Shown here: in pieces, positions 25,387-61,330 of the stretch | How the letters are laid out: the number at the start of each line of letters is the position of its first letter | How positions within the stretch are numbered: position 1 is the first letter of the stretch | Assembly (NCBI GenBank): GCA_963668625.2 | Contig: CAXXKA010000006.1 | Coordinates: forward strand, 352,001 to 416,000 | DNA length: 64,000 nucleotides | Source of the DNA: an uncultured candidate division Zixibacteria bacterium | Lineage (GTDB): Bacteria > Zixibacteria > MSB-5A5 > UBA10806 > 4484-95 | Direction: 5' to 3' | The notes under the pieces: model-generated | What the model saw: the letters and a program-made list of their open reading frames with translations, nothing else | Databases searched by the model: none | Told to the model about the DNA's origin: nothing | Program-made: the position numbers and the translations under genes

Positions 25387-25524
25387 GGAATTGTTGAAAA
25401 AGCCTGCTGTTGTGGCAGAAATCCATTCTTGCCATCTGAATTCATGCAGTATGTCGCCGGGAAAGGATGAACAAAGGACTCCGTCCGCCCAGTGATTCGT
25501 GATGCGGTTTTTTTCAGCAAAACC
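25387..25524 (+). mobile_element. MITE-like dispersed repeat, copy C, with 5-bp target duplication
   Basis: Ends GGAATTGTTGAAAAA / TTTTTCAGCAAAACC; CGAAA repeated at 25382-86 and 25525-29; shared core. Confidence 0.75.
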
Positions 25525-38315: not shown

Positions 38316-38430
38316 GGGATAATTGAAAAAGTCTATTTCATGAGTCGTTGGGCGGACGGAGTCCTTCGTTCACCATTTCCCGGTGACATACTGTATGAAT
38401 ACAGCAGGAAGGAAAGGATTCCTTCAAGCA
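38316..38430 (-). repeat. MITE-like dispersed repeat, copy D (inverted, partial)
   Basis: ATTGAAAAAG end, then GTCGTTGGGCGGACGGAGTCCTTCGTTCACCATTTCCCGGTGACATACTGTATGAAT, the reverse complement of the copy C core. Confidence 0.7.
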
Positions 38431-40674: not shown

Positions 40675-41968
40675 ATCTTATCAAGGGAATTGTGTAAATT
40701 TGTAATGATTTTCAGATTTTCGGTTATCCAGCACATAAGCGACTATTCCATAAACGATTCGATCAACACTTTTGGCATTAACAAATTTCCTGAACGGTTT
40801 TATCCTCCTTTGCAATTCCTCCAGATATCGCTCCAGAGGATTATTGGTCTTTATTTGAGTTCTTTCAGGTTCAGCATATTCTCGATAAATCAGTGTTCGA
40901 TCAAAGCCGCGAATAAATGATCGAACAGCTTTAGGTTCTTTCAATCGCCATTTGGCCTTGAAAGCTTTCAATCGTGCCTTCAACTCTTTCTCCGTCTCGG
41001 CCTGATAGACCGCAGCAGCATCCCTGGTGATTCGGCTGCGGTTTTTACGTTCATCCAGATTCTGGCTGATATTCGACAGCTTGTGGAAGACACATTGCTG
41101 TGATTTCACCCGCGGATATAACCCGGCCAGAGCTTTAATCAGCCCCTTACCACCATCGTGAACAACAACCTCCAACAAATGACCGCGCAGACCTCGCTGC
41201 TTGAGATCCGACAGAAAGCCCCACCAGTAGGCCTCGCTCTCAGAGCCAGCCAGCATGAAGTCGATAAGCTCACGGCTGCCATCGTGACGGACACCGTAGG
41301 CCACAAGCAACACCTTCTTCACCTTAACCGGAGAGGTTATCTTCACCCATAAACCATCCAGATGAATAAAACGATAATCATCGCCCAAAGCCCGACAGTG
41401 GAAGCTGCCAACCTCATCGTTTAATGCCTTAACTACGTTCGAGACAGCCTGGGCGCTGATGCTTTCACCATAGGCCCGCTTGAACATCCGTGCTGTCTTG
41501 CGGGTAGAATGACCAAGCAGAAAGCCCTCTAAAATCAGCCGATCCAATAGCTGCGAACGCCGTTTGTGCTTCCGCAAGACACTCGACTCAAAGCTGCCAT
41601 AACGCAGCCGGGGAACCTTTACCTCCTCTAACCAGCCGTATAAACTCAGCAAACCCCGACGGTAATAACCATTCCGATAATCCGCCCGCTCCTCACTCCG
41701 CTCATACTTTCCGCAGCCAACCGCTATCCTAAACTCAACATTCAACATCCGTTCCAAATGACGGCGAGCATGCTTCAACACCACACCCCGAACATCCTCC
41801 TCCCAATAACTCTTGACTCCGGCAAATACATAACCTACATTTTCATCAGCAAACCTAAGTGGTTTCACGGGTATATCCTCCTTGAAGATTAGCGTTTTCT
41901 GCTGGATATACCCGTAATTCTTTAATACATCAATAAATACAAATTTACACAATTGAATTTACACTAAT
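40675..41968 (-). mobile_element. IS256-family insertion sequence (~1.29 kb)
   Basis: Inverted repeats sharing AATTGTGTAAATTTGTA at both ends; direct repeat CCGACTCTG at 40666-74 and 41969-77. Confidence 0.9.
40681..41868 (-). CDS. IS256-family (mutator-type) transposase
   Basis: YRNGYY..VPRLR, HLDG, ESE..W, VHDG.KGL, QQCVFHK, TNN.LER; GTG after GGAGG. Confidence 0.93.
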   Translation of the reverse strand: MKPLRFADENVGYVFAGVKSYWEEDVRGVVLKHARRHLERMLNVEFRIAVGCGKYERSEERADYRNGYYRRGLLSLYGWLEEVKVPRLRYGSFESSVLRKHKRRSQLLDRLILEGFLLGHSTRKTARMFKRAYGESISAQAVSNVVKALNDEVGSFHCRALGDDYRFIHLDGLWVKITSPVKVKKVLLVAYGVRHDGSRELIDFMLAGSESEAYWWGFLSDLKQRGLRGHLLEVVVHDGGKGLIKALAGLYPRVKSQQCVFHKLSNISQNLDERKNRSRITRDAAAVYQAETEKELKARLKAFKAKWRLKEPKAVRSFIRGFDRTLIYREYAEPERTQIKTNNPLERYLEELQRRIKPFRKFVNAKSVDRIVYGIVAYVLDNRKSENHYKFTQFP

Positions 41969-47523: not shown

Positions 47524-47697
47524 TTACTTGCAATAACTCGCCATATCATATATTTTCAGGCATTATCTTTGCGCTATATATAGGTTGAATAAAGCGAAAT
47601 ACAGGGCCTTACTTGATGGCTGATAACGGATTACTAAATCAGAGCATCACCCTGGATGTGCAAGATAATGCAAAAGATGTAAAACGAGGTGAGACTT

Positions 47698-48189
47698 ATG
47701 GCAGGTTATGGAAACGGAAGATCGAACAGAAGCGACATGGTGGTTACCATATTCGCAATATTCGCGATATTGCTGGCCGGAGGCATTTCCGTTGCCACTA
47801 TCTCAACCGACAAAAACTCCGATATAGGGGCGATTAATACAGTCATGGACGCCCAACCCTTAGCCCGTGCCGAACAGGCCGCTATGGCCGGCGTAAGCGC
47901 CGTAAAAGGCCATATAGAGTGCCACGGTATTACCGAAAGCGGCGGATTGCCCGATCAGTATTATGCCAACGGCGCAAGGTTCAACGCGCTCTGGGATGAG
48001 ATTAACCTGGCCGATTCGACCGTGAAAATTATCTCTACCGGCTACTGCCTGGATGACGACGGGCTGGAATATTCGACCGAGTACGAATCGATTATTAAAG
48101 TTGATTTACTGGCCAGCCATGATCACCCGATTCTTCAGGACTACTACAATAACGGCCGTCAGAGCGTTTTGATTAATTCTCCCGAGTAA
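47698..48189 (+). CDS. Hypothetical protein with PilX-like N-terminal TM segment
   Basis: Single TM followed by 'AEQAAMAGV' and later 'VKIISTG'. Confidence 0.4.
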   Translation: MAGYGNGRSNRSDMVVTIFAIFAILLAGGISVATISTDKNSDIGAINTVMDAQPLARAEQAAMAGVSAVKGHIECHGITESGGLPDQYYANGARFNALWDEINLADSTVKIISTGYCLDDDGLEYSTEYESIIKVDLLASHDHPILQDYYNNGRQSVLINSPE

Positions 48190-48303
48190 TATAAACAATC
48201 CTGCTTTTTAACCGTTAAAGTAAACATGAATAATATTCTCTGTTTGACAGCAGCCGGAGTTGTTTTATATTAAGTTAAGGTCATAATGATGAGGGAGAGT
48301 ATA

Positions 48304-49431
48304 ATGAATAAACGGGCTATTTTCGCGATGATAATATCACTGTTCTGCGTATATCCGGCTTTGTCCCAACAACTATCAAATACATATCTTAACGGCGTAT
48401 ATTATAACGATCAAGGGCAACCTGAATTGCCCGCATTTTTGAGCACCAGCGATACCAGTTTCTTGATGTTTAACATGCCGGAGGCGTTTTACTGGCCTAC
48501 CGGTCTGACAAAAGAAAGCGAAAATTTTTACTGGCTGGCAGACTACAATCCCGGTCAAAGTAAACTTCGCAAGGTGTTTTACCGCATGGACGATCAATAC
48601 GCCTCGGTACTTAACTCATATGATTCGCCTTTATTAGGCTATGCAGGGCTCACTTATGACGGCGAGGATCTGTGGGCGGTATATGAAAATCAGTACAGGC
48701 TTTATCGCATAGATAATCTCACCGGTGTGACTATCGATTCATTCGCGTTACCGCTTCCCGATTCGCTAAATCCCGACCGTCACGCCTGGGGTATTGCCTA
48801 TGATGGCGAGTATCTCTGGCATAGTCAGTACGGTGAAAACTCTATTATCTATAAACTCGATCCCTCCAACGCCGCCATAGTAGATTCGATTATACCGACC
48901 GCCGCAATGCTTCTAGGATTAGCCTATGAAAATCCGTTCCTCTATGGCATAGATATTCAAAACGGTTTGATTTACAGGTTCAATCCCCAAACATTATCCG
49001 AGGTAGACAATTACGACTGGGATATTGGTTATCCGCTGGGTTTGCATTATGATTCGGAAGCCGGCAATTTTATCAATGTAAGCGGTAAGACAGATTACGG
49101 TGGGGATGAAGCGGTTTACATGGTAGGCATCACTGTGGGCATTGATGAACCATACAGTGCTGTGCCATCCTCGGTGGAGTTGCTTTCAGCTTACCCCAAC
49201 CCGTTTAACGCTACCACCAGCATATCATTCACGCTAATCCAGCCCTCGCAGGTAACGCTGGATATTTACGATATCCTTGGCCGCCGGGCTGAGAGCCTTG
49301 TAGATGAGTTCCTTCCCGCCGGTAACCACTCGGTGTTATGGCAGGCAGGGGAGATGACCTCGGGGATATATTTCTATCGTCTGACAGCAGGAGAGTATCA
49401 GGATTCGCGAAAGATTACGCTGTTGAAGTAG
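48304..49431 (+). CDS. Secreted beta-propeller protein (glutamine cyclotransferase/YncE-like repeats) with T9SS-type CTD
   Basis: Repeats GLTYDGEDLW / GIAYDGEYLW / GLAYENPFL; AYPNPFNA..RKITLLK CTD. Confidence 0.72.
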   Translation: MNKRAIFAMIISLFCVYPALSQQLSNTYLNGVYYNDQGQPELPAFLSTSDTSFLMFNMPEAFYWPTGLTKESENFYWLADYNPGQSKLRKVFYRMDDQYASVLNSYDSPLLGYAGLTYDGEDLWAVYENQYRLYRIDNLTGVTIDSFALPLPDSLNPDRHAWGIAYDGEYLWHSQYGENSIIYKLDPSNAAIVDSIIPTAAMLLGLAYENPFLYGIDIQNGLIYRFNPQTLSEVDNYDWDIGYPLGLHYDSEAGNFINVSGKTDYGGDEAVYMVGITVGIDEPYSAVPSSVELLSAYPNPFNATTSISFTLIQPSQVTLDIYDILGRRAESLVDEFLPAGNHSVLWQAGEMTSGIYFYRLTAGEYQDSRKITLLK

Positions 49432-49625
49432 TACTGTTACAATCGAATTCCAAATAAACATTGACAATTAGATTATTTATTGTATTATACAGATGAATAT
49501 CTGAATATTTATTTTTTGACATTATAATATTGGGGGAATGGCATTGTGCAAGGGTATCTATTATTTAATTTGAATAAATGGATTATCTTAATCCTTATAA
49601 TAATGAATCGGGGGGGGTAGAAGTC
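49189..49625 (+). repeat. Array repeat R1: CTD-coding segment plus downstream promoter region
   Basis: Nearly identical to 52291-52733; CTD part recurs at ~54921 and 58926-59166. Confidence 0.9.
49461..49488 (+). promoter_or_regulatory. Sigma70-type promoter inside the array repeat (second copy at 52568-52595)
   Basis: TTGACA-16 nt-TATTAT. Confidence 0.55.
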
Positions 49626-49707
49626 CACCTTTCTTTCAAATGAACATCAGTTTTTTGTAAAAGTTTTTGGTCAAGAATATTATTATTACTCAAGGAAGGA
49701 ATTAGTA

Positions 49708-50181
49708 ATGAAATGTTTTAAAAATATAGCAATAATGCTTTGCTTAATAATATTGATGGGGGCAGTAACGGTTAATTTAGTAAAGGCGGCGGATAAATGC
49801 ACAGCAAGTGCGACAATAACTGCAAGTGATGATTGCGGCTCCAATCCGTTAGCGCAGAAAATATATGATCCCTGTGACGCAAGCAGTTACTCGATCTATT
49901 ACCATATTGAGTTTGATAGAACACTAAGGCAACAACCTAGTTATTCATCAACGATTCGGATTAGGATAGTCGACACAGGAGCTGCAACGGACGTATTTTT
50001 CCGCGATATACATTCTTGGAATTACTCTGCCGGCTCGACAGATAATGTTGTTGATGGTTTAGTACCAGTATGGGGAACCAGTAATTCTCACACATTCAAA
50101 ATAGAAAGAGTTTTGGGCGATACACAAATGTTTGAAAACATTCAAGCTGATGTCGACTATAGAATTGGTACTCCGGACTAA
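49708..50181 (+). CDS. Small secreted Cys-containing protein of unknown family (array unit 1)
   Basis: AAGGA RBS, signal peptide; paralog of 56345-56755. Confidence 0.8.
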   Translation: MKCFKNIAIMLCLIILMGAVTVNLVKAADKCTASATITASDDCGSNPLAQKIYDPCDASSYSIYYHIEFDRTLRQQPSYSSTIRIRIVDTGAATDVFFRDIHSWNYSAGSTDNVVDGLVPVWGTSNSHTFKIERVLGDTQMFENIQADVDYRIGTPD

Positions 50182-50244
50182 TATCAATCAATTAACATCC
50201 TCCTGCAGTTTTGTTACTGTGGGGGGATTCGATAGGATTTTACT

Positions 50245-52538
50245 ATGAATAGATTTAGCATATTTATACTATTTTTTAGCATGATTTGCCTAGCTAATTT
50301 TGCTTGGTCCAACGAAAACGAATGGACTACTAATGGTCCTTATGGAGGCACGGTTAAAACCATAGAAATTAATCAACACAATCGGAATACTATTTATATA
50401 GGCACGATTACGAATGGAATGTATCAAACTGTGGATGCCGGGGAGCATTGGAGTCATATCGATAACGATGGTTTATTCATGACAATGCGCGATATCTCTA
50501 TTCATCCATTAAGCCCTGATACTGTATTTATTGCTACTGTTAGCGGACTGTTTAAAAGCACGAATAGTTGCAGTACCTGGAGCTTTATCGCTGGATCTAA
50601 TAGTGAGTTCGAGGTAATTAAATATCATCCTCAAAATCCGCATCTATTATTCGCAGGCGGGCCTACGAGAACCTGGAAATCGCTTGATGGCGGTAATACT
50701 TGGGTGGGCTTGGATGTTCCCAGTTCCACGGGAATGATCGATATCTGCTTTAATCCCCAGAATCCTAATTCGGTATATTTTATCGGGACGTCAATGGTTA
50801 CCGAACGAGGAGTATGGAAAAGTAGTGATATGGGTGAAACCTGGGAAAATATTCAAAATAATATAATACCTTATGGCTCCGGTACGCATATCGAGATTGA
50901 TCCGGTTGATACTAACAATATTTACATTTCTGTAGATAATTACACTATGCAGGATTATCCCTGTATATATAAATCTACCGATGGAGGAAACAACTGGTTG
51001 GATATTAGCCCTGAGTTCCTTTATGTCCCCTACGTTTTATCCATAGTTGTTTCACCAAACAATAATGAAGTACTTTACGCCGCGACTTTTGATAATGGAG
51101 TAATCATGAGTGAGGATTCAGGCGATTCATGGAGTGAAATAAACGATGGATTAAGTGATCATCATGTTGCAGCTATCGAAATTGATCCGGTTTTACAGGT
51201 TATATATATTGGCACGATCTATGATGGATTTTATAAAAAAACAATTGCCAACAGTCGCTGGGATAAATTTAGCAACGACATTAATATCGCGCATTGTTTT
51301 CATATTGATGTAAGCGCTGAGAACTCTGCGAAAGCTTTTGTTGCAGCAGCAAACGGCGTTTTCTTTACAGAAAATTCAGGCGAATTATGGTCATGTATCG
51401 AAATAGATGTCCAGGAGGGAAATCAGCTTTGGGATGGTATATTCGATGTATATTTACCTCAGAGATATTATGCATGCTCAGGTCTATCAACAATCTCACA
51501 GGTATCCTTATCGCCTAAGGGATTTTATCGCTCTGATGACGCCGGTGTAAGTTGGGAATTTTACAATGATGGCTTGCCTGAATACCTCTCTTATAACTTG
51601 ATTACTGTTTCATATAATTATCCCGATTCGAGAAGAATTTTTATGACTTCAACAGCAGGCTTATATAAATCAGATGATGATGGCGAATCTTGGGAGTTAT
51701 GTGATAATGGTATTCCGACGAATGATTATTTCGAAGATATAGAAATTTCGCCATCAAACCAACAAGTAATAGGTCTAGCATATTATCCGGGCAATAAGTT
51801 GTTTATTTCTTATGATAGAGGTGATTCCTGGGTTGAGTCCGGCCAACTTCCCCAGGCTGCAGATGCCCATACTATTGAGCTTGCTTTTAATCCTTTAAAC
51901 TCTTCACATATCTATATAAGCATTGCAAGATTAGGAATATATGAATCGCTTGATAGTGGCCAAACCTGGCAAAGCTTAGTAAACGATTTACCTTTAGATG
52001 GTCATTTCAACTATGTATCAGGGATTACGATAAATCCTTACAACCCTGACAATATTTTCGTATCAACATTTGGCCATGGTATTTACCAAAGCCATAACGG
52101 TGGTTTGCATTGGGAATCGTTCAATGCGGGTATGGATACGACCGGCGTTTTTAATGAGATGATGTTTGCTCCAGGGGACACCACGATTTTATACTTAGCG
52201 CGCGGTAATCGTTCCGTCTGGTCAATCAATCGCACGCCTGTCGGAATCGAGAACGAAGAGGTAACCCTCCCTACGCAGTACAGCCTTTCGGCCTACCCCA
52301 ACCCGTTCAACGCTACCACCAGCATATCATTCACGTTAATCCAGCCCTCGCAGGTAACGCTGGATATCTACGATATCCTCGGCCGTCGGGCTGAGAGCCT
52401 TGTAGATGAGTTCCTTCCCGCCGGGAATCACTCGGTGTTATGGCAGGCGGGGGAGATGCCCTCGGGGATATATTTCTATCGCATTGACTGACTGCAGGAG
52501 AGTATCGGGATTCGCGGAAGATTACGCTGTTGAAGTAG
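50245..52538 (+). CDS. Secreted BNR/Asp-box (Vps10/sortilin-, YCF48-like) beta-propeller with T9SS-type CTD; frameshift near 52485 (ORF stops at 52491)
   Basis: Many S.D.G.[TS]W repeats; final CTD residues TAGEYRDSRKITLLK* lie in another frame ending at 52538. Confidence 0.8.
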
Positions 52539-52733
52539 TACTGTTACAATCGAATTCCAAATAAACATTGACAATTAGATTATTTATTGTATTATACAGA
52601 TGAATATCTGAATATTTATTTTTTGAAATTATAATATTGGGGGAATGGCATTGTGCAAGGGCATCTATTATTTAATCTGAATAAATGGATTATCTTAATC
52701 CTTATAATAATGAATCGGGGGGGGGTAGAAGTC
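52291..52733 (+). repeat. Array repeat R2
   Basis: Near-identical to R1, including promoter and poly-G tract. Confidence 0.9.
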
Positions 52734-55700
52734 ATTTAGGAATATTGAACCAGTATAGAACAAGTTGTGGAACGTTGATTTTCGGTTAATTAATTATGAA
52801 TAGCATTCAGGGGGGCTTTTAGGAGAAAAATGAACGCGCATTGGTATTATGCATCTATATGTCGTGTTTGCTATTGTATCAAACGCTGATGATGGAACTT
52901 GGTAACAAATTGTGGAACGGTAAAAGATTGTAGCGCATCCCGTAGATAGCGAATACAATCTATGCAGGCACCATAGCAAATGGAATTTATAAATCCATTG
53001 ATGGTGGTAACTGGAATCATTTATCTGATGTGCTTTATCACAATTCGTGAAATTGGAATTCAATCCTGGTTTACACGATGTACGCTGCTGCTGCTGGTGG
53101 ATAATGTAACAATTCAGGTGAGACATGGATGAAAGATTTATATCCTCCGGGAAATGTGGATGGTATTTATGAGGCAATTCTTGTACATTCTGTAGAGCCA
53201 AATTTTGTGGCTGGTGGAGTTTGCCACTTGGAAGTCTATTGATGGTTCAGATACATGGCTAAGAAATGGATTTGCCGTATGGTTAGGTACAACTGCTTTT
53301 GCCATCGATAATAATAATGTTATTTATATTAGGCACAGTACTAGAACATATTTGGTTATGGAAGTTGGAAATTCGAAGATATGGGGCAATCCTGGTTAGA
53401 ATAATTCAAAATAACATTGATACCGTTGGATATGGGGCAGATATTGAAGTTGATCCCCAGAATTCAGATATGCTCGTATCTAGGTAGATTTATACTGGAA
53501 ACAAACGCGCTATTCAGCGTGTGTATTTAGCATCTACTAATGGAGGTGTATCTTGCTATTGATATCAAACCGGAACTCAGATATATCATCATGACTTTAA
53601 CAAATTTCGCCAATTAATAGTCATATTATTTATCTTGGTACCAAGGAAGATGGTATTTTTAAAAGATTGATTTGTATTCATACCGATAAATAATGGACTG
53701 AGAGTACAATCAAATAGCAGGCACCATAGCAAATCGACTCTCTCAGTAATATCCATTTATGGTTGAACTGGAACATTTCATGATGGTGCTTTACAAGAGT
53801 GTAAACGAGGGCGAATCCTGGGAAAAAATAAGCGATAATCATTCCTTTTGCGTTGAGACACGATGATGCTGTCTGGTGAATTATTTTAATGAAGGTGAAG
53901 CAATTCAGGTGCGGCAAGAAATGGTTTATTGCCACATCTGATATGGAAAGTCATGGGAAATCGTTGATATAGAATTACCGATGTACCATGAGGTATCTTC
54001 AATTAATTCGATTTATTCGATAGTGAAATTATTGTACGCTTCAACTTCAGTTAACGATGGAGCTATTACAATCCATCACTGCAGGGAAGTCTTCATTTGA
54101 TGGCGGACAAGACATGGCATTTCAGCGATACATGGGTTACCTGATGATATCAGTTGTAAGGTACAACTGCTATTTGCATATAGATAGGAATAATAATTTT
54201 CTTGGGATCAACTAGGCCTATTAGATGACATGGAAGTACTTTCATATTTGGAATATTATGGGGATGGGAGAATAGTCTTCCAGAAACAATATTGATGCAT
54301 TGGATATGGGGCAGATATTGATGTTGATCCCAATGGGACATTCAGATAAAATGTATCTTGGTAGGTTTGTCCTGGTATTCAGTATTTCTATCAAATAATA
54401 GAGGTGAACATTGGCAGGAGGTGTCCAGATTCCAACACCCGAGGTAGAATCAGATAACCGATCATGCATTGACTTTAAAAATTTCATCCTACAAATAGTC
54501 AAATTATTTATATGTTTGCTACCTAGGACGTATGGTAGTGTTCAAATCAATCAATGGCTGGGACAAGATTGGGAGAACGATTAGTAATAATTTACCCTTT
54601 GAGAGTAGCGCGTCGATTTGAAATCTGGCTCTGGCAATCAGTTTATATAACCCCGATAATATTTGGGAATATGTTCTAATAACTGTGGTATTTATCAAGT
54701 CGTATAATGAGTGGCGAAAGTCCTGGGAATCTTTTAATATTGGAATGCGATACTATTCCACGGACGTTGAGCCAAATGATACTTCGCTTATGATGATACA
54801 ACTATTATGTATTATGCCTCATCTAAAAGCTCCGTCTGGTCAATCACACGCACACGGTTTATTCGTGGGCATTGATGATGGAAAGTCATGGTAACCCTCC
54901 CTACGCAGTACAGCCTTACCGGCCTACCCCAAGGTATCGTTCAACGCCACCACCAGTGATATCATTCACGCTAATCCAGCCCTCGCAGTTAACGCTGGAT
55001 ATTTACGATATCCTTGGCCGCCGGGCTGAGAGCCTTGTAGATGAGTTGATGCCCGCCGGGAATCACTCGGTGTTATGGCAGGCGATACAGGAGCTGTACC
55101 TCGATGATATCATTTCTATCGTATTGTGCCGGGGAGTATCATGATTCGCGAAAGATTACGCTGAATGAAGTAGTACTGTTACAATCGGATTCCAAATCAA
55201 GGCCTATTGACAATTAGATGGGTATTTATTGTAATATACAGATGAATAGTCTCCAGAAACAATAATATGCATTTTTTGAAATGGGACAACAATATAATAG
55301 TTGTTGGCGGAATGGCATTGTGCAAGGGTATCTATTATTTAATTAGATAAACATTGGCAGGATTATCTTAACACCTTAGGTAATAATGATCGGGGGGGTG
55401 CAAGTCCACCTTGCTTTCAAATGAACATCAGTTTGTTGTAATAGTTTTTGGTCGTTATAATGGATGTTCAAATCAATTAATTTGACAAGGATTACATTAG
55501 TAATAATATCGTTTTGACAGTATTGCGCAGTCGATTTGTTCTGGCCTGCTTTAACCCCGATAATTATTTTTAGGGGCTGGGTTTTGTAATCAACTGTGGT
55601 ATTTATGGACAATCGTCATAATGGTGGCAGTAAGTTATCTCTGCTGATGATGATTGGTGGCATACCCACTTGCACAGACTTGGCCAGTAACTATGACTCC

Positions 55701-56340
55701 GCTGTAATGAGATACAATATGTATTGGGTTTGGAATTCGATAGAACAAGCGAGACATCGGGGCATGCTATTGGGCATTAAGTATAGAATAATGGATGGTA
55801 ACCCTCCCTACAGCAGGTACAGTCTGTTTTTCAGATTCGCCACCACCAGCATAATTATTGCTTATACACAGCCAAACTCTATCAGGTAACGCTTGATATC
55901 TGTAGGATCAAGTTCCAGTCATGTCGCATCGCTTTTAATAGTAGCTGGAAGCCCAGGGTATTTCGAAGATAGTTCCTGGCATCACAGCTAATTATCGTGC
56001 AGGCGGCGCTAAGCTGTCCTCGGGGATATATTAACTATTGTTTTACTGCCGGGCATTATTTATGATTCGCAGATCGCGATTATCGCTGATCTGGATAGTA
56101 AAATGAAATGCTACAATATAGAAAATTGCTTTCAAAAAGGATTAATATGGCAAGTTACATTATTTATTGTATTATCACAGATGAATATTTTTACATATTT
56201 CAATTGTTCTTGAAATTTTGGTATTGCTGTTGCTCAGGAAAATACCTGGCATTGTACAAATGGCATCTGATGGTGGAAGCGTTGAATACAATGGAGTTAT
56301 CATCCCAATAATCATGATATATTTTTTATTGGTACTGTTC
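52734..56340 (+). other. Scrambled array unit(s): broken propeller gene, repeat R3 (~54921-55460) and a garbled duplicate of 56341-57040; probable assembly consensus artefact
   Basis: No long ORF; recognisable propeller fragments (e.g. IQNNIDTVGYGADIEVDPQN); dense indels; two sequences interleaved. Confidence 0.7.
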
Positions 56341-56344
56341 AGTT

Positions 56345-56755
56345 TTGTTCTGCTTTGTAAATGGGGCTGGGTTTTGTAATCAAGTTTATGGACAATGTCA
56401 AAGCAGTAACTATATCTCTGCTGATGATGATTATGGTGGCAACCCACTTGCACAGAGCAGTAACTATGATCCGTGTAATAGTAATGTGTATTGGGTTGTG
56501 GAATTCGATAGAACAAGCGAGACATCGGGGCATGCTATTATTAAGTATAGAATAATGGATGGTGTTACAGAGGTGTTGTCTGTTTTGATAGATTCCGATA
56601 ATTATGGTGCTTATACACACCAAACTCTATCAGGTCTTGAATCTGTAGGATCAAGTTCCAGTCATGTCGCATCGCTTTTAATAGTAGCTGGAAGCCCAGG
56701 GTATTTCGAAGATATTGAGGCAACAGCTAATTATCGTGCAGGCGGCGCTAATTAG
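56345..56755 (+). CDS. Small secreted Cys-containing protein (last array unit); true start lost in the scrambled region
   Basis: Shares DD.G.NPLAQ, YDPC, EFDRT, FE.I.A...YR.G with 49708-50181. Confidence 0.75.
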   Translation: MFCFVNGAGFCNQVYGQCQSSNYISADDDYGGNPLAQSSNYDPCNSNVYWVVEFDRTSETSGHAIIKYRIMDGVTEVLSVLIDSDNYGAYTHQTLSGLESVGSSSSHVASLLIVAGSPGYFEDIEATANYRAGGAN

Positions 56756-56826
56756 ATATATTAACTTTGTTTTAAAGCATTATTTATATCCAGATCGCGA
56801 TTATCGTGATCTGGATATAAAATGAA

Positions 56827-59166
56827 ATGCTACAATATAGAAAATTGCTTTCAAAAAGGATTAATATGGCAAGTTACATTGTTATGATCAAGAGAATAAT
56901 TTTTACAATTTCAATTGTTCTTAATTTTGGTATTGCTGTTGCTCAGGAAAATACCTGGCATACAAATGGACCTGATGGTGGAAGCGTTGTTACAATGGAG
57001 TTTCATCCCAATAATCATGATATATTTTTTATTGGTACTGTTCAAAATGGGATGTATAAAACAACTAATGGCGGGCAAAGCTGGCAACATATTGAGAATA
57101 ATGGCCTTTTCTCATGTATGCGTGATATTGCAATACACCCGAATTCACCTGATACTATTTTTGTAAGTACGACTACTGGCATTTATAGGTCAAATAACGG
57201 TGGAGTTGATTGGGAATTCGTGGAGTTGCCTGAATTTTCGTCAAATGAAATAAAGGTTATTAAATACCATCCCGAGAATCGCCAAATAATATTTGCTGGT
57301 GGTCCTATTAATACTTGGAAATCTCTTGATGGAGGGAATTCATGGGAATCTCTAACTGTACCGGTTTGGACAGGCATGGATGAAATAGAGATAAATCCTC
57401 AAAATAATGATGTTATTTATTTTATAGGTTCATCAATGGCGACTGGTAGAGGTGTATGGAAGAGCATAGATAGGGGAGCAACCTGGCTAAATATTCAAAA
57501 TAATATCGATAGTACTGGTGCACCTACTGATTTAACTCTTAATCCTGCCGATACGAGTATGTTAATGATATCTATGAATAATGTAGTAAATCCTGGCAAC
57601 CCATCGTTATATAGATCTACTAATTCAGGCGAGAGCTGGGTGGGTGTAGGTCCAGAGTCTTTATCCATTACCTATGCCACTAATGTAATGTTTTCTCCGC
57701 TTGAAACGAATACTGTTTATTTAGTATCAAAAGAGGATGGCGTTTTTAAAAGCGAGGATTTAGGAAATACCTGGAATAGTTATAGTGATGGGCTTAAGTT
57801 TAATCGAAATGCTACGATTGAAATAGATGAATCCAATTCTATTTTATATTTGGGAACATACTATGATGGAATATACAAGAGGCTTATTAATGAAGGTGGA
57901 TGGATAAAAATAAGTAAAAATATTAATGCCGCATCATGTATTCAACTAGATATTTGTAGCCTTGATGACAACTCAGGCTACGTTTCAGCCACGAATGGAT
58001 TGTTTAAAACAAATGACATGGGAGAGACATGGCTATTTTTAGATATTGGTATGTCGATTTATACTGGAAATAGTGGTATTGCTATTGATAAATATCAGAA
58101 CAATATAATATATGTATCATCATCGCATAGATCATTGTACCCTATTGAAGACGCAGGATTTTATATTTCTGAGGATTCCGGATCAACATGGAACTTTTAT
58201 AATTCTGGTTTGCCTGGAAATATTTCTTATAGAGATATATGTATATCATACCTGTCTGAGAATGAAAAAAGAATATTCCTCATTTCCTCAGAGGGATTAT
58301 ACTATTCTGATGACTTGGGTCGAAATTGGCAGTTAAATATTAGCTTGCCGACGAGTATTTATTTAGAAGTAATTGATATAGCTACTTCAAACTCGAATTG
58401 TATTGCTGTTGGTGATCATGATAATAATGTTTATATATCGGAGGATTTAGGCGATACTTGGAATCAAACTGGAGAGCTGCCCGATTTTGAGCACCATGAG
58501 TATATAATTGATATCGAGTTTGATCCGATTGATGAAAATCATATATTTGTTGCTAGTTGTTATTTAGGTTTATTTGAATCGACTAATGGAGGTGAGGAAT
58601 GGCGTAATATTAATAATAATGTGCCATTAGACCCAGCAATTAGTATAATATCTGGAATTGTGATTAATCCCAATAATTTACAAAATATTTTTGTAGCCTC
58701 AAATCACTATGGTATTTACCGAAGCTTTAATGGAGGACAGAATTGGGAGTCTTTTAATAATGGGATGGATACAACTGATGGTGTTGGTGAAATGATTCTC
58801 ATTCCGGGTGACACAACTAAGTTTTACTTTGCATCATCGCAAAGATCAATTTGGACTTTTAAACAAACTTCCACTGATATCATTGTTAACAATGCAATTC
58901 TCCCCACGCAGTACAACCTCTCAACTTACCCCAACCCGTTTAACGCCTCAACAAACATATCATTCACACTGATCCAGCCCTCGCAGGTTACGCTTGATAT
59001 CTACGATATACTCGGCCGACGGGCGGAGAGCCTGGTTGACTGGTACCTGCCCGCCGGTAACCACTCGGTGTTATGGCAGGCGGGGGAGCTGCCCTCGGGG
59101 ATATATTTCTATCGTATTACTGCCGGGGAGTATCATGATTCGCGAAAGATTACGCTGCTGAAGTGA
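56827..59166 (+). CDS. Secreted BNR/Asp-box beta-propeller with T9SS-type CTD (likely start 56884)
   Basis: Collinear paralog of 50245-52538 (WxTNGPxGG.., S.D.G.TW repeats); TYPNPFNA..RKITLLK. Confidence 0.85.
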   Translation: MLQYRKLLSKRINMASYIVMIKRIIFTISIVLNFGIAVAQENTWHTNGPDGGSVVTMEFHPNNHDIFFIGTVQNGMYKTTNGGQSWQHIENNGLFSCMRDIAIHPNSPDTIFVSTTTGIYRSNNGGVDWEFVELPEFSSNEIKVIKYHPENRQIIFAGGPINTWKSLDGGNSWESLTVPVWTGMDEIEINPQNNDVIYFIGSSMATGRGVWKSIDRGATWLNIQNNIDSTGAPTDLTLNPADTSMLMISMNNVVNPGNPSLYRSTNSGESWVGVGPESLSITYATNVMFSPLETNTVYLVSKEDGVFKSEDLGNTWNSYSDGLKFNRNATIEIDESNSILYLGTYYDGIYKRLINEGGWIKISKNINAASCIQLDICSLDDNSGYVSATNGLFKTNDMGETWLFLDIGMSIYTGNSGIAIDKYQNNIIYVSSSHRSLYPIEDAGFYISEDSGSTWNFYNSGLPGNISYRDICISYLSENEKRIFLISSEGLYYSDDLGRNWQLNISLPTSIYLEVIDIATSNSNCIAVGDHDNNVYISEDLGDTWNQTGELPDFEHHEYIIDIEFDPIDENHIFVASCYLGLFESTNGGEEWRNINNNVPLDPAISIISGIVINPNNLQNIFVASNHYGIYRSFNGGQNWESFNNGMDTTDGVGEMILIPGDTTKFYFASSQRSIWTFKQTSTDIIVNNAILPTQYNLSTYPNPFNASTNISFTLIQPSQVTLDIYDILGRRAESLVDWYLPAGNHSVLWQAGELPSGIYFYRITAGEYHDSRKITLLK
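58926..59166 (+). repeat. Array repeat R4 (CTD segment only)
   Basis: Highly similar to the CTD part of R1/R2, but the downstream sequence is unrelated. Confidence 0.85.
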
Positions 59167-59287
59167 TATTCGATAGTAGAGGTAAATCGCCACGCCCATC
59201 CCCCTGGATTCCGGGTCAAGCCCGGAATGATATACTTTGACGACCGGTATGATTATACTTCTATATCAATTGTAAGCGCTATCTAGA

Positions 59288-60274
59288 TCAGTACTTTCTT
59301 CGGCGTTCCACCATATAGTTGGAGCCGGCCTTGGTCTTGGTGAACTTCTTCAAGTCGGCCATCATGTGGCTCATCTCGGCGATATGCTTGAACGCTTTGC
59401 GCTGATTGGGTATCACCGCGATTGAGATAGTCATCAGCGGGAATTTCTCCAGCACACCGCGACGGTCGGGTACCTCTATCCAGCCTCGGTCGCGGTCCTC
59501 CTGAAGGTAACGAATCGGGATCATTTTATCGAATGTCGAGATGATGTTCTTGCAAACTATATCGACTTTATCCAGCGGTATTACGAATATGAAATCATCC
59601 CCGCCAATATGCCCGACGAAACCGTTGTAGACCAGGTCATGAACCGTTGTTTTTATGATATGCGAGGTCATCAGGATGATTTTATCACCGTAGACATAAC
59701 CGTAATAATCGTTGTATGCTTTGAAATTATCGAGATCGCCATAGCACACTGCTACCTTTTCGCCGCTGTTTAACCTGATATTCGTTTCGTTTTCGATAGC
59801 CGCCGGGCCGGGAAGTTTGGTCGTTGGGTTTACGCTTAAATCCCGGATCGACCGCGAGATCAACATCTGCATTTTGGCGGTAACGAGTTCATAGTCCCAG
59901 AAATTCGTGATTACATCATCCACGCCGTTATTGAATGCCTCGATGATTAGTTTCTTTTCCGGCGAGGGATGGAAGAAAACCACCGGTATGAACTGAAGAG
60001 TCGAGTCGCGTTTAATATGAGGGAGAAGCTCCATCATCCAATTAGCCTGAGAGTTGCCGGCAATAACTATCATCTCGAGCATAGTCCGCTGGCAGATCGT
60101 GTATAGTTCGTCGAAATTACTAAAAGGATGTATGATAACCTCGTATTTACGAATACTACGAATTATACGATCCTCAACAGCGGTTCCACGCTGCATTAAA
60201 GCGCAATGGAAAGTAGGGCTATGTTTTTTCTGGGGCTGTATCGATGACTGTTTTTTCGCTACTAGATTTTCCAT
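59288..60274 (-). CDS. GGDEF-domain protein with receiver-like N-terminal domain
   Basis: NPTTKLPG, DLDNFKAYNDYYG..GD, HIGGDDF. Confidence 0.85.
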   Translation of the reverse strand: MENLVAKKQSSIQPQKKHSPTFHCALMQRGTAVEDRIIRSIRKYEVIIHPFSNFDELYTICQRTMLEMIVIAGNSQANWMMELLPHIKRDSTLQFIPVVFFHPSPEKKLIIEAFNNGVDDVITNFWDYELVTAKMQMLISRSIRDLSVNPTTKLPGPAAIENETNIRLNSGEKVAVCYGDLDNFKAYNDYYGYVYGDKIILMTSHIIKTTVHDLVYNGFVGHIGGDDFIFVIPLDKVDIVCKNIISTFDKMIPIRYLQEDRDRGWIEVPDRRGVLEKFPLMTISIAVIPNQRKAFKHIAEMSHMMADLKKFTKTKAGSNYMVERRRKY

Positions 60275-61152
60275 TTTTCCCTCGGATGAAACTCCTTATG
60301 CTCGGCGATTATAAAATCCCGATCCAAATGAGTATATATTTCTGTAGTAGATATATCGGCATGACCGAGTAATTCCTGCACTGCAAGAAGGTCAGCGCCA
60401 CCCGCCAATAGATGCGATGCGAAACTATGACGTAACGTATGAGGGGAGACATCTTTGGATATATTCGCTAAAAGACAATATTTCTTTACAATCCGCCAGC
60501 CAGCCATTCTCTGGAGAGGATTTCCACGGTTGCCCAGAAAGATAAAATCGGCGCTTTTTGAATTGGATAATTGGGTTCTGGAATCTTTTATATAGTTGTT
60601 CAAACTGTTCCAACCGGCCTTACCAAGTGGTACGACACGTTCTTTTTTGCCTTTGCCATACAGTTTCACGAGCATCATTTCCGATATCAAGTCTGCCAAA
60701 TGGCAATTCAGGGCTTCGCTAATCCTGGCGCCGGTGCCGTATAGAAATTCCAATAAGGCTTTATCACGAAGGCCGAGTTTGGTACCGGTATCGGGAAGGG
60801 AAAGGATTTTCAGCACCTGCTCTATCGTTAGTGTTTCCGGGAGGTTACGATATAATTTCGGTCCGGCGATACCGGCGGCCGGGTTCGATTCGATTTTGCC
60901 GGTACGAAAAGCGTATTTGAAAAGCCCTTTCACGGCGCTTAAGTTCCTGGCAATAGAGCCTGAGGATAAGCCTTCTTTTTGGAGTTTTAGTAAATAGTCG
61001 GTGATATCCAACGAGGTGATTTCAGCCGGATGTTTATTATCAGAGTATGTGGCAAATTTGGATAAATCCCTACCGTAAGCCTCTACGCTGTTAATTGAGG
61101 CGGCTCTTTCCAGCCTCAGGCTCTCCAGATACAATTCGATTAATTCATTCAT
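60262..61152 (-). CDS. xerD: Site-specific tyrosine recombinase XerD
   Basis: YGTGARISE, GKGKKERVVP, SPHTLRHSFASHLL.GGADL..VQELLGHADISTTEIYTH..HPR. Confidence 0.85.
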   Translation of the reverse strand: MNELIELYLESLRLERAASINSVEAYGRDLSKFATYSDNKHPAEITSLDITDYLLKLQKEGLSSGSIARNLSAVKGLFKYAFRTGKIESNPAAGIAGPKLYRNLPETLTIEQVLKILSLPDTGTKLGLRDKALLEFLYGTGARISEALNCHLADLISEMMLVKLYGKGKKERVVPLGKAGWNSLNNYIKDSRTQLSNSKSADFIFLGNRGNPLQRMAGWRIVKKYCLLANISKDVSPHTLRHSFASHLLAGGADLLAVQELLGHADISTTEIYTHLDRDFIIAEHKEFHPREKWKI

Positions 61153-61215
61153 CACGATAGATTATATAAAACAAAGATGGCTATAGTCAATTACAGATAA
61201 AAATCCCTTGCTGGA

Positions 61216-61330
61216 GGTACTGTTGAAAAAGTTGTTTGCACAAGTCGTTGAGCGGACGAAGTCCTTAGTTCATCCTTTGCCGACGACATACTGCATGTAT
61301 GCAGCAGGAAGAAAAGGATTCCTTCCTGCT
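61216..61330 (-). repeat. MITE-like dispersed repeat, copy E (inverted, partial)
   Basis: TGTTGAAAAAG end, GTCGTTGAGCGGACGAAGTCCTTAGTTCATCCTTTGCCGACGACATACTGCATG core, GCAGGAAG..CTTCCTGC hairpin. Confidence 0.72.

Follow-up and report, generated by a model that had tools for sequence, protein, structure and literature searches.

In Tannerella forsythia, a small ORF stands in front of each cargo gene of the KLIKK protease arrays (Ksiazek et al., 2015, PMC4404884), and the small-ORF proteins, the potempins, are described as binding and inhibiting their own downstream peptidase (PMC9890683). The KLIKK arrays are the closest known case to the locus analysed here, which lies in a 64,000-nucleotide stretch of DNA (the window) from the genome of an uncultured candidate division Zixibacteria bacterium (G000). 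In both systems the T9SS cargo genes lie in clusters and have CTDs that are almost the same, and a small partner ORF lies upstream of the cargo, here an ORF of 136-157 aa upstream of all eight intact propeller genes of the family in the genome; for one pair a model predicts binding between the small protein and the cargo encoded downstream. In contrast to KLIKK, GH74-like double propellers take the place of peptidases as cargo, the C-terminus reads ...KITLLK and not KLIKK, the small proteins form one homologous family whereas potempins are lipoproteins without mutual similarity, the promoter/leader is homogenised as well, the modules are dispersed over five loci, and the organism belongs to a different phylum. 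Domain rearrangement and allelic exchange have been reported for RgpA, Kgp and HagA of Porphyromonas gingivalis (Dashper et al., 2017, PMC5266723). As described there, the likeness lies in conserved C-terminal parts of T9SS cargo and in variation via homologous recombination or gene conversion, and the difference is that adhesin modules are swapped between strains of a naturally competent pathogen (PMC5266723), whereas the exchanged block here is the sorting domain, among old paralogs of one genome. The locus (Table 1) is likely a tandem array of a conserved module with old, co-diverging bodies, whose ends have been homogenised by ordinary recombination or gene conversion; the array would be a clear example of a known evolutionary route for surface-protein families.

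Table 1. Features of the array and its flanks, in window coordinates.
Feature	Position	Strand	Details
Conserved 166-aa gene	47689..48189	+	left flank of the variable site
Gene A	48286..49431	+	DUF6923-like passenger 48286-49182; propeller-family T9SS CTD R1 49183-49431
Leader 1	49435..49707	+	promoter-like site 49461-49488; G8 tract 49610-49617; conserved block after the tract; Shine-Dalgarno
Small secreted protein 1 (157 aa)	49708..50181	+	signal peptide and 8-stranded beta-sandwich
Hairpin between small gene and propeller gene	50197..50228	+	-22.2 kcal/mol, z -4.1
Propeller 1	50245..52536	+	GH74-like double propeller; CTD R2 52285-52536
Leader 2	52542..52725	+	broken just past its G9 tract
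Unit 3	52734..55171	+	full-length propeller, family-colinear, shifting frames; ends in R3 (54897-55171)
Leader 3	55178..55457	+	G7 tract 55392-55398
Degenerate copy of small gene 4 and propeller 5' end	55458..56339	+	probably an assembly artefact
Small secreted protein of the last unit	56345..56755	+	136 aa as called
Hairpin between small gene and propeller gene, last unit	56783..56821	+	19-nt arms, 95% complementary; -30.1 kcal/mol, z -7.7
Propeller 2 (779 aa)	56827..59166	+	complete CTD R4 58918-59166
Terminator-like hairpin	59206..59230	+	closes the array
GGDEF-domain gene	59288..60274	-	right flank of the variable site; convergent to the array
XerD-type tyrosine recombinase gene	60262..61155	-	conserved neighbour of the GGDEF gene

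A first-pass annotation, made from the sequence alone, had described four genes ending in the same CTD-coding DNA, and self-BLAST of the window found the repeats where it had put them: R1 (49183-49625) matched R2 (52285-52733) at 94.7% over 449 nt, R3 (54938-55453) at 82.5% over 519 nt and R4 (58918-59164) at 86.6% over 247 nt, and R2 matched R4 at 84.4% over 270 nt. The tail copies are all direct repeats on the + strand, with no inverted copy of the kind that a shufflon or invertible segment has. The CTD-coding DNA is 82-95% identical overall, and the gene bodies are unrelated or about 40-70% identical. Also as annotated, the N-terminal parts are unrelated or diverged, since the DUF6923-like gene at 48286 (gene A) has zero similarity to the propellers and the two intact array propellers match each other only in patches of ~68%. 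In sliding windows along codon alignments, the higher identity that had been claimed for the CTD DNA was borne out: nucleotide identity was 40-70% in the passenger and 77-91% in the CTD for W_P1/W_P2, 33-64% and 84-98% for W_P2/C6b, and 30-68% and 98% for C5a/C5b. The pair C1a/C1b showed the reverse pattern, with body tracts 100% identical and one tail segment at 70-79%. The CTD DNA is indeed GC-richer than the AT-rich passenger DNA (GC 0.53-0.56 vs 0.35-0.45; GC3 0.62-0.71 vs 0.27-0.49; background GC3 of ORFs of at least 300 aa, 0.52). At the extreme C-terminus the profile of the T9SS type A sorting domain matches above its curated cutoff: Por_Secre_tail (PF18962) scored 30.5 bits in gene A, 28.3 in propeller 1 and 32.5 in propeller 2 (cutoff 27), and TIGR04183 scored 40.4 and 40.3 bits at array tails (cutoff 23).

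The annotation had also R1-R3, and not R4, continuing into a common promoter-containing spacer. This holds: the spacer common to R1, R2 and R3 carries a TTGACA-16-TATTAT promoter-like site (11 of 12 positions matching in a promoter scan), and R4 runs into the terminator-like hairpin. An alignment of nine leaders indicated that the promoter/leader is a second homogenised block, which the annotation had missed. The units stand head-to-tail, the stop codon of each tail being followed directly by the next leader, and a solo unit at a second C6 locus begins at the leader's first bases. At a GC of about 0.27-0.32 the leader is AT-rich although homogenised, which is at odds with simple GC-biased conversion as a reading of the GC-rich tails. 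Homopolymeric G tracts mark the contingency loci of Neisseria, Haemophilus and Campylobacter. Their likeness here is a G7-G12 tract ~90-105 nt upstream of the first gene in seven of the genome's eight modules, differing in length even between otherwise near-identical leaders, homopolymer lengths being unreliable in the assembly and paralogous leaders overlaying one another in contigs; unlike in those loci, the tract stands in the leader, neither between the promoter hexamers nor in a coding frame.

The unit is in fact a family dispersed over the genome, a further point that the first-pass annotation had missed. The two-gene module is present in at least nine copies at five loci, the paralogous ones being on C1 (two in tandem), C10 (one), the second C6 locus (one) and C5 (two), and the tail family of the array is found on three other contigs. 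Genome-wide there are 214 ORFs with CTD-like tails, which suggests a working T9SS; 206 of these carry a YPNPFN motif, and among them are 15 clusters whose tail DNA agrees to 80% or more, in several of which the passengers are unrelated or 28-54% identical. The window's other four CTD genes fall in none of the 15 clusters, in line with the annotation's view that they do not share this tail DNA.

Between 52.73 and 56.34 kb the window is probably a poor, noisy consensus, which also went unseen in the first-pass annotation. The read-side check used Logan contigs of ~2x depth, in which no rearrangement at strain or read level was seen. These short-read contigs agree letter for letter with 49997-52177 and, apart from six gap letters near the start, with 56340-59055; within 52.73-56.34 kb the differences are mostly insertions. 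A 5-nt insertion at ~52483, which makes the ORF of propeller 1 stop at 52491 and truncates its tail, is absent from the six other copies that were aligned and from one of the short-read contigs; over 82 nt of unit 3, a contig is short of 12 letters that the window has; and a short-read contig joins 55457 to 56340, skipping 882 nt. The skipped copy (55458-56339) differs from 56345-57044 by 15 substitutions, with 51 insertion events (115 nt) in the former and 6 in the latter. Unit 3 has no small gene, and tblastn recovers it in pieces that stay colinear over query residues 47-740 and lie in three frames; it is probably a noisy consensus rather than a proven pseudogene. Because the consensus is noisy here, the labels pseudogene, partial duplicate and truncated tail are unreliable, and the number and integrity of the mid-array units are uncertain. 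The proposed repeating layout of promoter, small gene, propeller and CTD is thus exact for the first and last units only, the middle being frame-broken or incomplete (the R3 gene, the insertion in R2, the missing small gene of unit 3 and the partial duplicate).

The histories of bodies and tails were compared in trees of few rows, drawn from relatives that are not independent of one another (17 rows for passengers and 18 for CTD DNA). In the passenger tree the G000 copies fall into at least three old clades common to other genera: C5a is sister to G009 (SH-aLRT 98), and C5b, C10 and C6b, with G004_b and G011_9, fall on the far side of the deepest split. In the CTD tree copies cluster by genome and locus; seven G000 tails, that of gene A included, form one clade (95/99), and C5a pairs with C5b (100/100), G004_a with G004_b (100/99) and G019_22a with G019_22b (99/99). 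An AU test rejected the grouping of C5a with G009 for the tails (p 7e-8), the tested group having been picked after the passenger tree was seen. Identical residues used the same codon at a fraction of 0.36-0.50 in passengers (0.91 in the near-identical pair C1a/C1b) and up to 0.79-0.93 in CTDs. Over 136 pairs, the identity of small proteins followed that of passengers (r 0.85; none of 5000 Mantel permutations as high; 0.75 without C1a), while r was 0.12 between small protein and CTD and 0.18 between passenger and CTD. The bodies thus appear to be old paralogs in which small gene and passenger diverge together. That the tail has a history of its own and has been exchanged between genes, as the annotation had supposed, is borne out by the conflicting trees, the homogenised synonymous sites and the tail of gene A. 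Gene A, which matches DUF6923 and Por_Secre_tail in Pfam, ends in the tail of the propeller family, beginning with the YPNPFN motif; this tail shares 62 of 65 and 71 of 79 residues with propeller tails and 37 of 79 with an ortholog's tail, the orthologs in G001 and G006 having tails of their own.

The site itself varies between relatives. The GGDEF gene has orthologs in all 41 genomes searched, G000 included, and in 6 of 11 relatives' loci a homolog of the 166-aa gene adjoins it with no gene A between. In G006 the stop of gene A abuts that of the GGDEF gene, and the site in G001 holds gene A and an unrelated 493-aa CTD gene. The empty site that the annotation had predicted therefore exists in a relative. 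From these comparisons the array appears to be a lineage-specific insertion, relatives having an empty site or other content. The module family had no member in two same-genus genomes, whose assemblies are fragmented (420 and 310 contigs), and two scans of metagenomes did not turn up a relative.

As we would reconstruct it, the array built up at a variable site flanked by gene A, which encodes an unrelated T9SS cargo, and by the convergent GGDEF gene. Its module would consist of a sigma-70-like promoter with a G-tract leader of ~210 nt, a small Sec-exported beta-sandwich protein, a hairpin and a GH74-like propeller with a type A T9SS CTD. Both module ends, the promoter/leader and the ~240 nt of tail DNA, would have been repeatedly homogenised among within-genome copies through ordinary homologous recombination or gene conversion, a case of concerted evolution, and the same process would have overwritten gene A's own tail from the conserved YPNPFN-coding motif. 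The family tail shares exact identities of at least 20 nt with only 4 of the other 207 CTD ORFs and of 15-19 nt with 16; with identity so short, the first capture of the tail by gene A would have needed more than classical long-homology recombination. What we infer from these data is the recombination pathway, the pairing of small protein with propeller and whatever part the array plays in varying the surface. Leader and tail might instead have served as homology arms by which small-plus-propeller bodies from foreign DNA or other strains replaced residents through double crossover. The homogenised ends around an old, diverged middle, the AT-rich passengers (GC3 0.27-0.40 vs the background of 0.52) and the C5a body, whose nearest relative belongs to another genus, speak for such import. 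Yet GC3 is low at all family loci and in the G019 and G009 copies, and may be a family property rather than a mark of import, and the passenger tree is also compatible with old vertical paralogs; we regard import as unlikely. Cassette exchange of this kind by allelic replacement is compatible with within-genome gene conversion and would complement it.

Integrons excise, insert and reorder cassettes at attC sites, and the first-pass annotation had seen in the locus a candidate cassette-like system. A site-specific recombinase acting on a core site in or at the tail end could reorder units in this way; head-to-tail units with a common short conserved 3' element, the solo unit that starts exactly at a leader and a tyrosine recombinase gene ~1 kb from the array end would suit it. 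That recombinase, however, is a XerD equivalog (TIGR02225, 330.2 bits, cutoff 329.6), a model that outscores the integron models, and relatives that have no array carry it in the same place beside the GGDEF gene; among the ORFs scanned from 29.8 to 64 kb, neither an integron integrase nor a further recombinase or reverse transcriptase was found, one Mutator-family transposase (40681-41952) aside. The inverted repeats of the array are only short, weak pairs, 71-95% complementary, none of them attC-like or at unit ends, each unit has its own promoter, and conversion tracts are mosaic with differing ends, with no single break site and no defined core site found. A dedicated system is therefore very improbable, and this part of the annotation did not stand. 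Also very improbable is a history without recombination, in which recent duplicates had bodies evolving fast under diversifying selection and tails held by purifying selection. The tail is a functional secretion signal with a near-universal motif, as this would have it, but bodies cluster with other genera and tails by genome, synonymous sites in the tails are alike, an unrelated gene has the same tail DNA and downstream spacer, and C1a/C1b show the reverse pattern; the tree conflict and the synonymous-site homogenisation already contradict it. We give equally little credence to collapse or chimeric joining of paralogs during assembly: the poor mid-array consensus, where contigs disagree with the window, and the spurious-looking insertion in R2 speak for it, but the differences among R1, R2 and R4 are substitutions (17 and 30), indels being few, the tail family recurs on three other contigs, short-read contigs reproduce stretches of the first and last units, and tandem copies in other genera, assembled independently, have homogenised tails too.

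Regarding the gene products, small protein 1 had no Pfam or NCBIfam match, and 1.84 billion proteins yielded 91 representatives of its family; its model has a pLDDT of 89.5, and the family's signals are of the signal-peptidase-I type, with no lipobox seen by eye. Propeller 1 matches Sortilin-Vps10/BNR and Por_Secre_tail in Pfam. Propeller 2 scored 184 bits against the NCBIfam F510_1955 glycosylhydrolase model (cutoff 175) and matched a GH74 profile at E 6.5e-38, colinear over positions 128-663; its predicted fold is GH74 (Foldseek E 1e-29, TM 0.60), the best 24 ranks all being GH74, with an ancestral reconstruction among them (E 1e-29 to 1e-25, TM 0.57-0.60). Like the GH74 xyloglucanases (PDB 5fkq, 6p2l and 2cn3), it is thus predicted to have two tandem seven-bladed beta-propellers; identity to them is 15-19%, and the T9SS tail and dedicated small partner are foreign to the solved enzymes listed. 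A complex of propeller 2 with its small protein was predicted at ipSAE 0.92, the best of three controls reaching 0.01; among solved complexes 58 of 80 reach the mark used, as do 2 of 110 mismatched pairs, counts that are rough for this pair, for which our own alignments were used. Runs agreed in at least 93% of contacts, with partner pLDDT of at least 86, and the predicted complex places the small protein at the blade loops of its own propeller, with which it probably acts as a cognate pair. A strong hairpin separates small gene and propeller gene in five of six units folded, different in sequence each time, and the paralogous C10 locus has two copies of the 23-nt core of the hairpin closing the array.

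Self-comparison over 47-60.5 kb of the window recovered all four direct copies of the tail-coding DNA (CTD) claimed by the first-pass annotation: R1, which ends gene A; R2, which ends propeller 1; R3, which ends unit 3; and R4, which ends propeller 2. R1 (49183-49625) was 94.7% identical to R2 (52285-52733) over 449 nt, 82.5% to R3 over 519 nt and 86.6% to R4 over 247 nt, and R2 was 84.4% identical to R4 over 270 nt. Three intact genes carry a C-terminal Por_Secre_tail domain. Between propellers 1 and 2 the self-comparison found only patches of ~68% match, and in a codon alignment their passengers (the non-tail parts) were 40-70% identical while their tails were 77-91% identical. Three further claims were borne out: a common spacer, holding a TTGACA-16-TATTAT site, follows R1, R2 and R3 but not R4, which leads into a terminator-like hairpin; GC content is higher in tails than in passengers (0.53-0.56 vs. 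0.35-0.45, with GC3 at 0.62-0.71 vs. 0.27-0.49); and the window's four other CTD genes do not share this tail DNA, none of them belonging to any cluster of similar tails. An ORF of 136-157 aa with a signal peptide lies upstream of each propeller gene; together with the leader and the tailed propeller gene it makes up a module that recurs at four further loci of the source genome, G000. Upstream of the module on contig C10, a 49-nt remnant of a tail 3′ end with a terminator hairpin suggests that a neighboring unit has been lost. Elsewhere in the window, a Mutator-family (IS256-like) transposase gene (40681-41952, minus strand) sits between two T9SS cargo genes.

Table. Positions of genes, modules, tail clusters and repeated elements in the window (plain numbers), on contigs of the source genome (C) and in extracted loci (L).
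Feature	Position	Remarks
Gene A	48286-49431	DUF6923-like + Por_Secre_tail (Pfam)
Propeller 1	50245-52491	Sortilin-Vps10/BNR + Por_Secre_tail (Pfam)
Propeller 2	56827-59166	Sortilin-Vps10/BNR + Por_Secre_tail (Pfam)
C1 locus	C1:10223-16172	two modules in tandem (C1a, C1b)
C10 locus	C10:222441-226480	one module; IS110-family transposase gene inserted between its small and propeller genes (C10:224756-225838 = L049:2756-3838, minus strand)
Second C6 locus	C6:567139-570216	one module
C5 locus	C5:238497-244316	two modules (C5a, C5b) with a tail type of their own
Example tail cluster	C6:472223-478769	tails 92-99% alike
Further tail clusters	C1:523738-529874, C6:626249-634159, C8:474980-484093	
Leader G tracts, window	49610-49617, 52717-52725, 55392-55398	
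Leader G tracts, elsewhere	C1:10123, C1:13240, C5:241346, C5:244405, C6:567313, C10:226564	
Intergenic hairpins	50197-50228, 56783-56821, L048:1688-1754, L050:1841-1945, L051:2762-2827	
Copies of ~100-nt repeat, window	38323-38425, 61223-61325, 25417-25502	

The assembly cannot be trusted in the middle of the array, where 52734-56339 is probably long-read consensus left unpolished. Segment 55536-56341 repeats 56345-57044, and between the two there are 15 substitutions along with 51 insertion events (115 nt) in the former and 6 in the latter. R3 with its spacer differs from R2 with its spacer by 36 substitutions and 19 insertion events, with 3 in the opposite direction, against 30 substitutions and 2 indel events (R4/R1) or 17 and 3 (R2/R1) in the clean pairs. 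Poor long-read consensus typically shows such a surplus of insertions, and real bacterial pseudogenes show the opposite, a deletion bias. Logan short-read contigs were taken from the likely source sample, a single one at a depth of ~2, in which each observation is one contig and the absence of cover at 52792-54727 and 55696-56179 is uninformative in itself. One contig joins 55457 straight to 56340, skipping 882 nt; one is without 12 of the window's letters within 54833-54914 and then runs into an R1-like tail; and one is without 5 letters at 52483. The tail of propeller 1 is truncated because of a 5-nt insertion in R2 (ATTGA), which is missing from all six other aligned copies, and unit 3 (52734-55171) has shifting frames, yet it is colinear with the family's propellers over residues 47-740. 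Given the insertion excess and the contradicting contigs, artefacts probably account for the pseudogene, the partial duplicate and the truncated tail of R2, and it is uncertain whether the array holds three or four units and whether unit 3 has a small gene. Two contig records were rejected as junctions: 49281 to 58926, a joint that is out of tail register and has a shorter side of only 25 letters, and 58947 to 52353, which carries 38 foreign letters. A G tract 1 nt shorter at 49610 in one contig was unusable since paralogous leaders overlay the same place. Near-identical tails break assemblies, as in the window.

The histories of tails and bodies were compared using a passenger tree of 17 family members (eight from G000 and nine from four other genera) and a tail DNA tree of 18 rows. 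In the passenger tree, the G000 copies fall into at least three old clades: C5a is sister to the copy of the related genome G009 (SH-aLRT 98), and C5b, the C10 copy and the second C6 copy group with G004_b and G011_9 across the deepest split. The tail DNA tree is instead grouped by genome and locus, with one clade of seven G000 tails that includes that of gene A (95/99), and with C5a joined to C5b (100/100), G004_a to G004_b (100/99) and G019_22a to G019_22b (99/99). Grouping C5a with G009 was rejected for the tails by an AU test (p 7e-8), the group having been picked after viewing the passenger tree. Selection on the protein would also keep tails alike; however, identical residues use the same codon at a fraction of 0.36-0.50 in passengers and of 0.79-0.81 (window copies vs. 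second C6 copy) or 0.93 (C5a/C5b) in tails, so that protein-level selection alone cannot explain the likeness. Across 136 pairs, small-protein identity follows passenger identity (r 0.85, or 0.75 without C1a; Mantel test, 0 of 5000 permutations as high), whereas tail identity tracks neither small protein nor passenger (r 0.12 and 0.18). The passenger of gene A has 130 of 285 residues identical to its ortholog in G001, a genome of the same genus; its tail shares 37 of 79 with that ortholog's tail, and 62 of 65 and 71 of 79 with the tails of the neighboring propellers. Its likeness to the propeller tails begins at the YPNPFN-coding motif, which is also the site of the longest exact matches between R1 and unrelated CTD genes: 32 of the 46 exact matches to R1 of at least 14 nt start within its first 20 nt, and only 4 of 207 CTD ORFs have one of at least 20 nt. 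C1a and C1b form the reverse mosaic, with body tracts 100% identical and a tail segment at 70-79%, so that conversion tracts are patchy and have no single boundary.

The leaders behave like the tails. Their alignment shows two TTGACA boxes, a block TTGGGGGAATGG, a G7-G12 tract followed by AGTCCACCTT, and a Shine-Dalgarno sequence, and the window leader DNA is 85% identical to the leaders of the C10 and second C6 loci, where the small proteins are only 17-45% identical. With leader and tail alike and the small proteins and passengers diverged, both ends of the module have been homogenised and its middle has not. Rfam gave no match on the leaders other than a sub-threshold miRNA model on an intercistronic palindrome, and RNAalifold on seven leaders gave no support for a conserved structure (covariation term +0.88), the helices returned being a G-tract/UCCACC hairpin that never varies and a Shine-Dalgarno-covering helix that is broken in the two C5 copies. 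Strong hairpins occur in five of six intergenic regions between small and propeller genes (-22 to -30 kcal/mol, z -3.1 to -7.7); since their structure is kept while their sequences are unrelated between units, they may determine the relative amounts of the two products. No inverted repeats of note were found.

Tail sharing extends beyond this family. An HMM built for the analysis identified 214 ORFs with CTD-like tails in G000, 49 of which fall into 15 clusters, mostly of tandem neighbors, with tail DNA at least 80% alike; in several clusters the passengers are 28-54% identical or have no relation to each other. Different cargo genes share tails in the related genome G019 as well, where CTD genes of 417 and 700 aa on contig C22 (L069 1603-2856 and 6422-8524) flank a family module and have 46 of their last 48 residues identical. 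A dispersed ~100-nt repeat, present in the genome in more than 60 copies that are 71-88% identical and unmatched in Rfam, occurs immediately downstream of two CTD genes on the minus strand of the window. Tail GC3 exceeded passenger GC3 by 0.15-0.41 in all 12 family members with homogenised tails (eight from G000, two from G004 and two from G019), by 0.01-0.04 in four members whose tail pairs with no other in the tail DNA tree, and by 0.14 in one further copy, that of G009. Genome-wide, GC3 was 0.588 in clustered tails vs. 0.410 in their passengers, a contrast whose p value is overstated since cluster members are not independent, and 0.501 in unclustered tails vs. 0.480 in theirs. The tail excess is compatible with GC-biased gene conversion, but the AT-rich homogenised leader does not fit. 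GC-biased gene conversion in bacteria is debated (PMC4450053), and these GC3 values provide a small natural data set on the question.

The flanks of the array site are conserved in relatives, and the empty site that had been predicted is present in G006, of another genus, where gene A has its own tail and its stop lies 2 nt from that of the GGDEF gene. In G001 gene A is followed by an unrelated 493-aa CTD gene; in six genomes (G003, G004, G005, G007, G008, and G019) the 166-aa left-flank gene adjoins the GGDEF gene and gene A is absent; in G009 the left-flank gene is unmatched within the locus; and the contigs of G002 stop at the site. T9SS cargo genes were gained stepwise here, and the array is lineage-specific. 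The first-pass annotation had proposed a cassette-like system recombining within the tails. The recombination part of that proposal is well supported, but there is no sign of a dedicated cassette machine; the tyrosine recombinase beside the GGDEF gene is a XerD equivalog that keeps the same position in relatives. We consider it quite probable that the sequence observation, which holds, reflects ordinary concerted evolution of a surface-protein family; none of the findings establishes a new mechanism. Several independent tests show that unrelated cargo genes of one genome can share a secretion signal which evolves apart from them as a recombining block, and this holds at 15 places in the genome and in tandem copies of other genera. 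Near-identical tails accordingly mislead orthology calls, and tail phylogenies are silent on cargo history. In the literature we found no account of T9SS tail homogenisation as such, nor of G-tract control of T9SS cargo, although supplements could hold relevant tables. In an empty-site search for the second C6 locus, its upstream flank genes were not near purL in the loci of nine relatives. A contig search with one propeller protein found no relative, and a first metagenome scan with leader patterns gave 0 matches; the 17 matches of a second scan were dismissed as chance, none having a small-protein or propeller gene by tblastn.

The propeller matches the NCBIfam F510_1955 glycosylhydrolase model (184 bits, cutoff 175). 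Its predicted structure (pLDDT 82.7) matches GH74 xyloglucanases (E 1e-29, TM 0.60) and its profile matches GH74 chains (E 6.5e-38), so that by modeled fold and profile it is GH74-like. The small protein has no Pfam or NCBIfam match, and its family comprises 91 representatives among 1.84 billion proteins; a word-indexed protein search gave 5 matches, 4 of them apparently from the same genome. It is modeled as an 8-stranded beta-sandwich (pLDDT 89.5), for which a fold search returned only generic beta-sandwich/jelly-roll matches (TM at most 0.49), from which no function follows. The propeller 2 passenger and its own small protein gave a predicted complex with an ipSAE of 0.92, the best of three controls reaching 0.01; the ipSAE mark is reached by 58 of 80 solved complexes and 2 of 110 mismatched pairs, figures that hold only roughly here because our own alignments were used. 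At least 93% of contacts agree between runs, with partner pLDDT of at least 86. Over the full length of the propeller chain, predicted contact residues recur at intervals of ~20-25 residues, a spacing which suggests that the small protein would lie against the blade loops lining the cleft between the two propellers. The predicted complex and the co-divergence of small protein and passenger suggest cognate pairs, and the small proteins make up a new uncharacterised family whose binding to GH74-like blade loops is predicted with high confidence and clean controls. Potempins pair with KLIKK peptidases (PMC9890683), and the pairs described here, whose binding is predicted, would resemble them. The array belongs to a known kind, KLIKK-like arrays and recombining T9SS cargo genes, and stands apart by its cargo, its new partner family and its homogenised leaders.

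Every leader of the module family contains the G7-G12 tract, which in seven of eight units lies ~91-102 nt upstream of the small-gene start. The genome has 23 G/C tracts that reach 8 nt or more, 7 of them in these leaders; tract length differs among otherwise near-identical leaders (e.g., G11 and G7 in the two tandem C1 modules), and 8 of 10 relatives' leaders examined have a run of 7 or more G or C. The tract may be a slipped-strand switch, but homopolymer lengths in the assembly are unreliable. A broader reading, which we regard as improbable, would see the T9SS tail and the leader, whose G tract would be hypermutable, as one portable frame serving expression and export; co-evolving propeller/small-protein pairs would be swapped in and out of it by recombination at the two conserved ends, units would be switched independently by G-tract slippage, and GC-biased conversion would leave its mark in tail GC3. 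If true, this would be a contingency-locus system varying the surface glycan-binding/hydrolase repertoire in an uncultured phylum, in which the small protein would plug the cleft of its GH74-like propeller. A G8 tract also stands straight after a TATAAT box in two near-identical copies at C6:628098 and C6:630532, within another tandem array of CTD genes.
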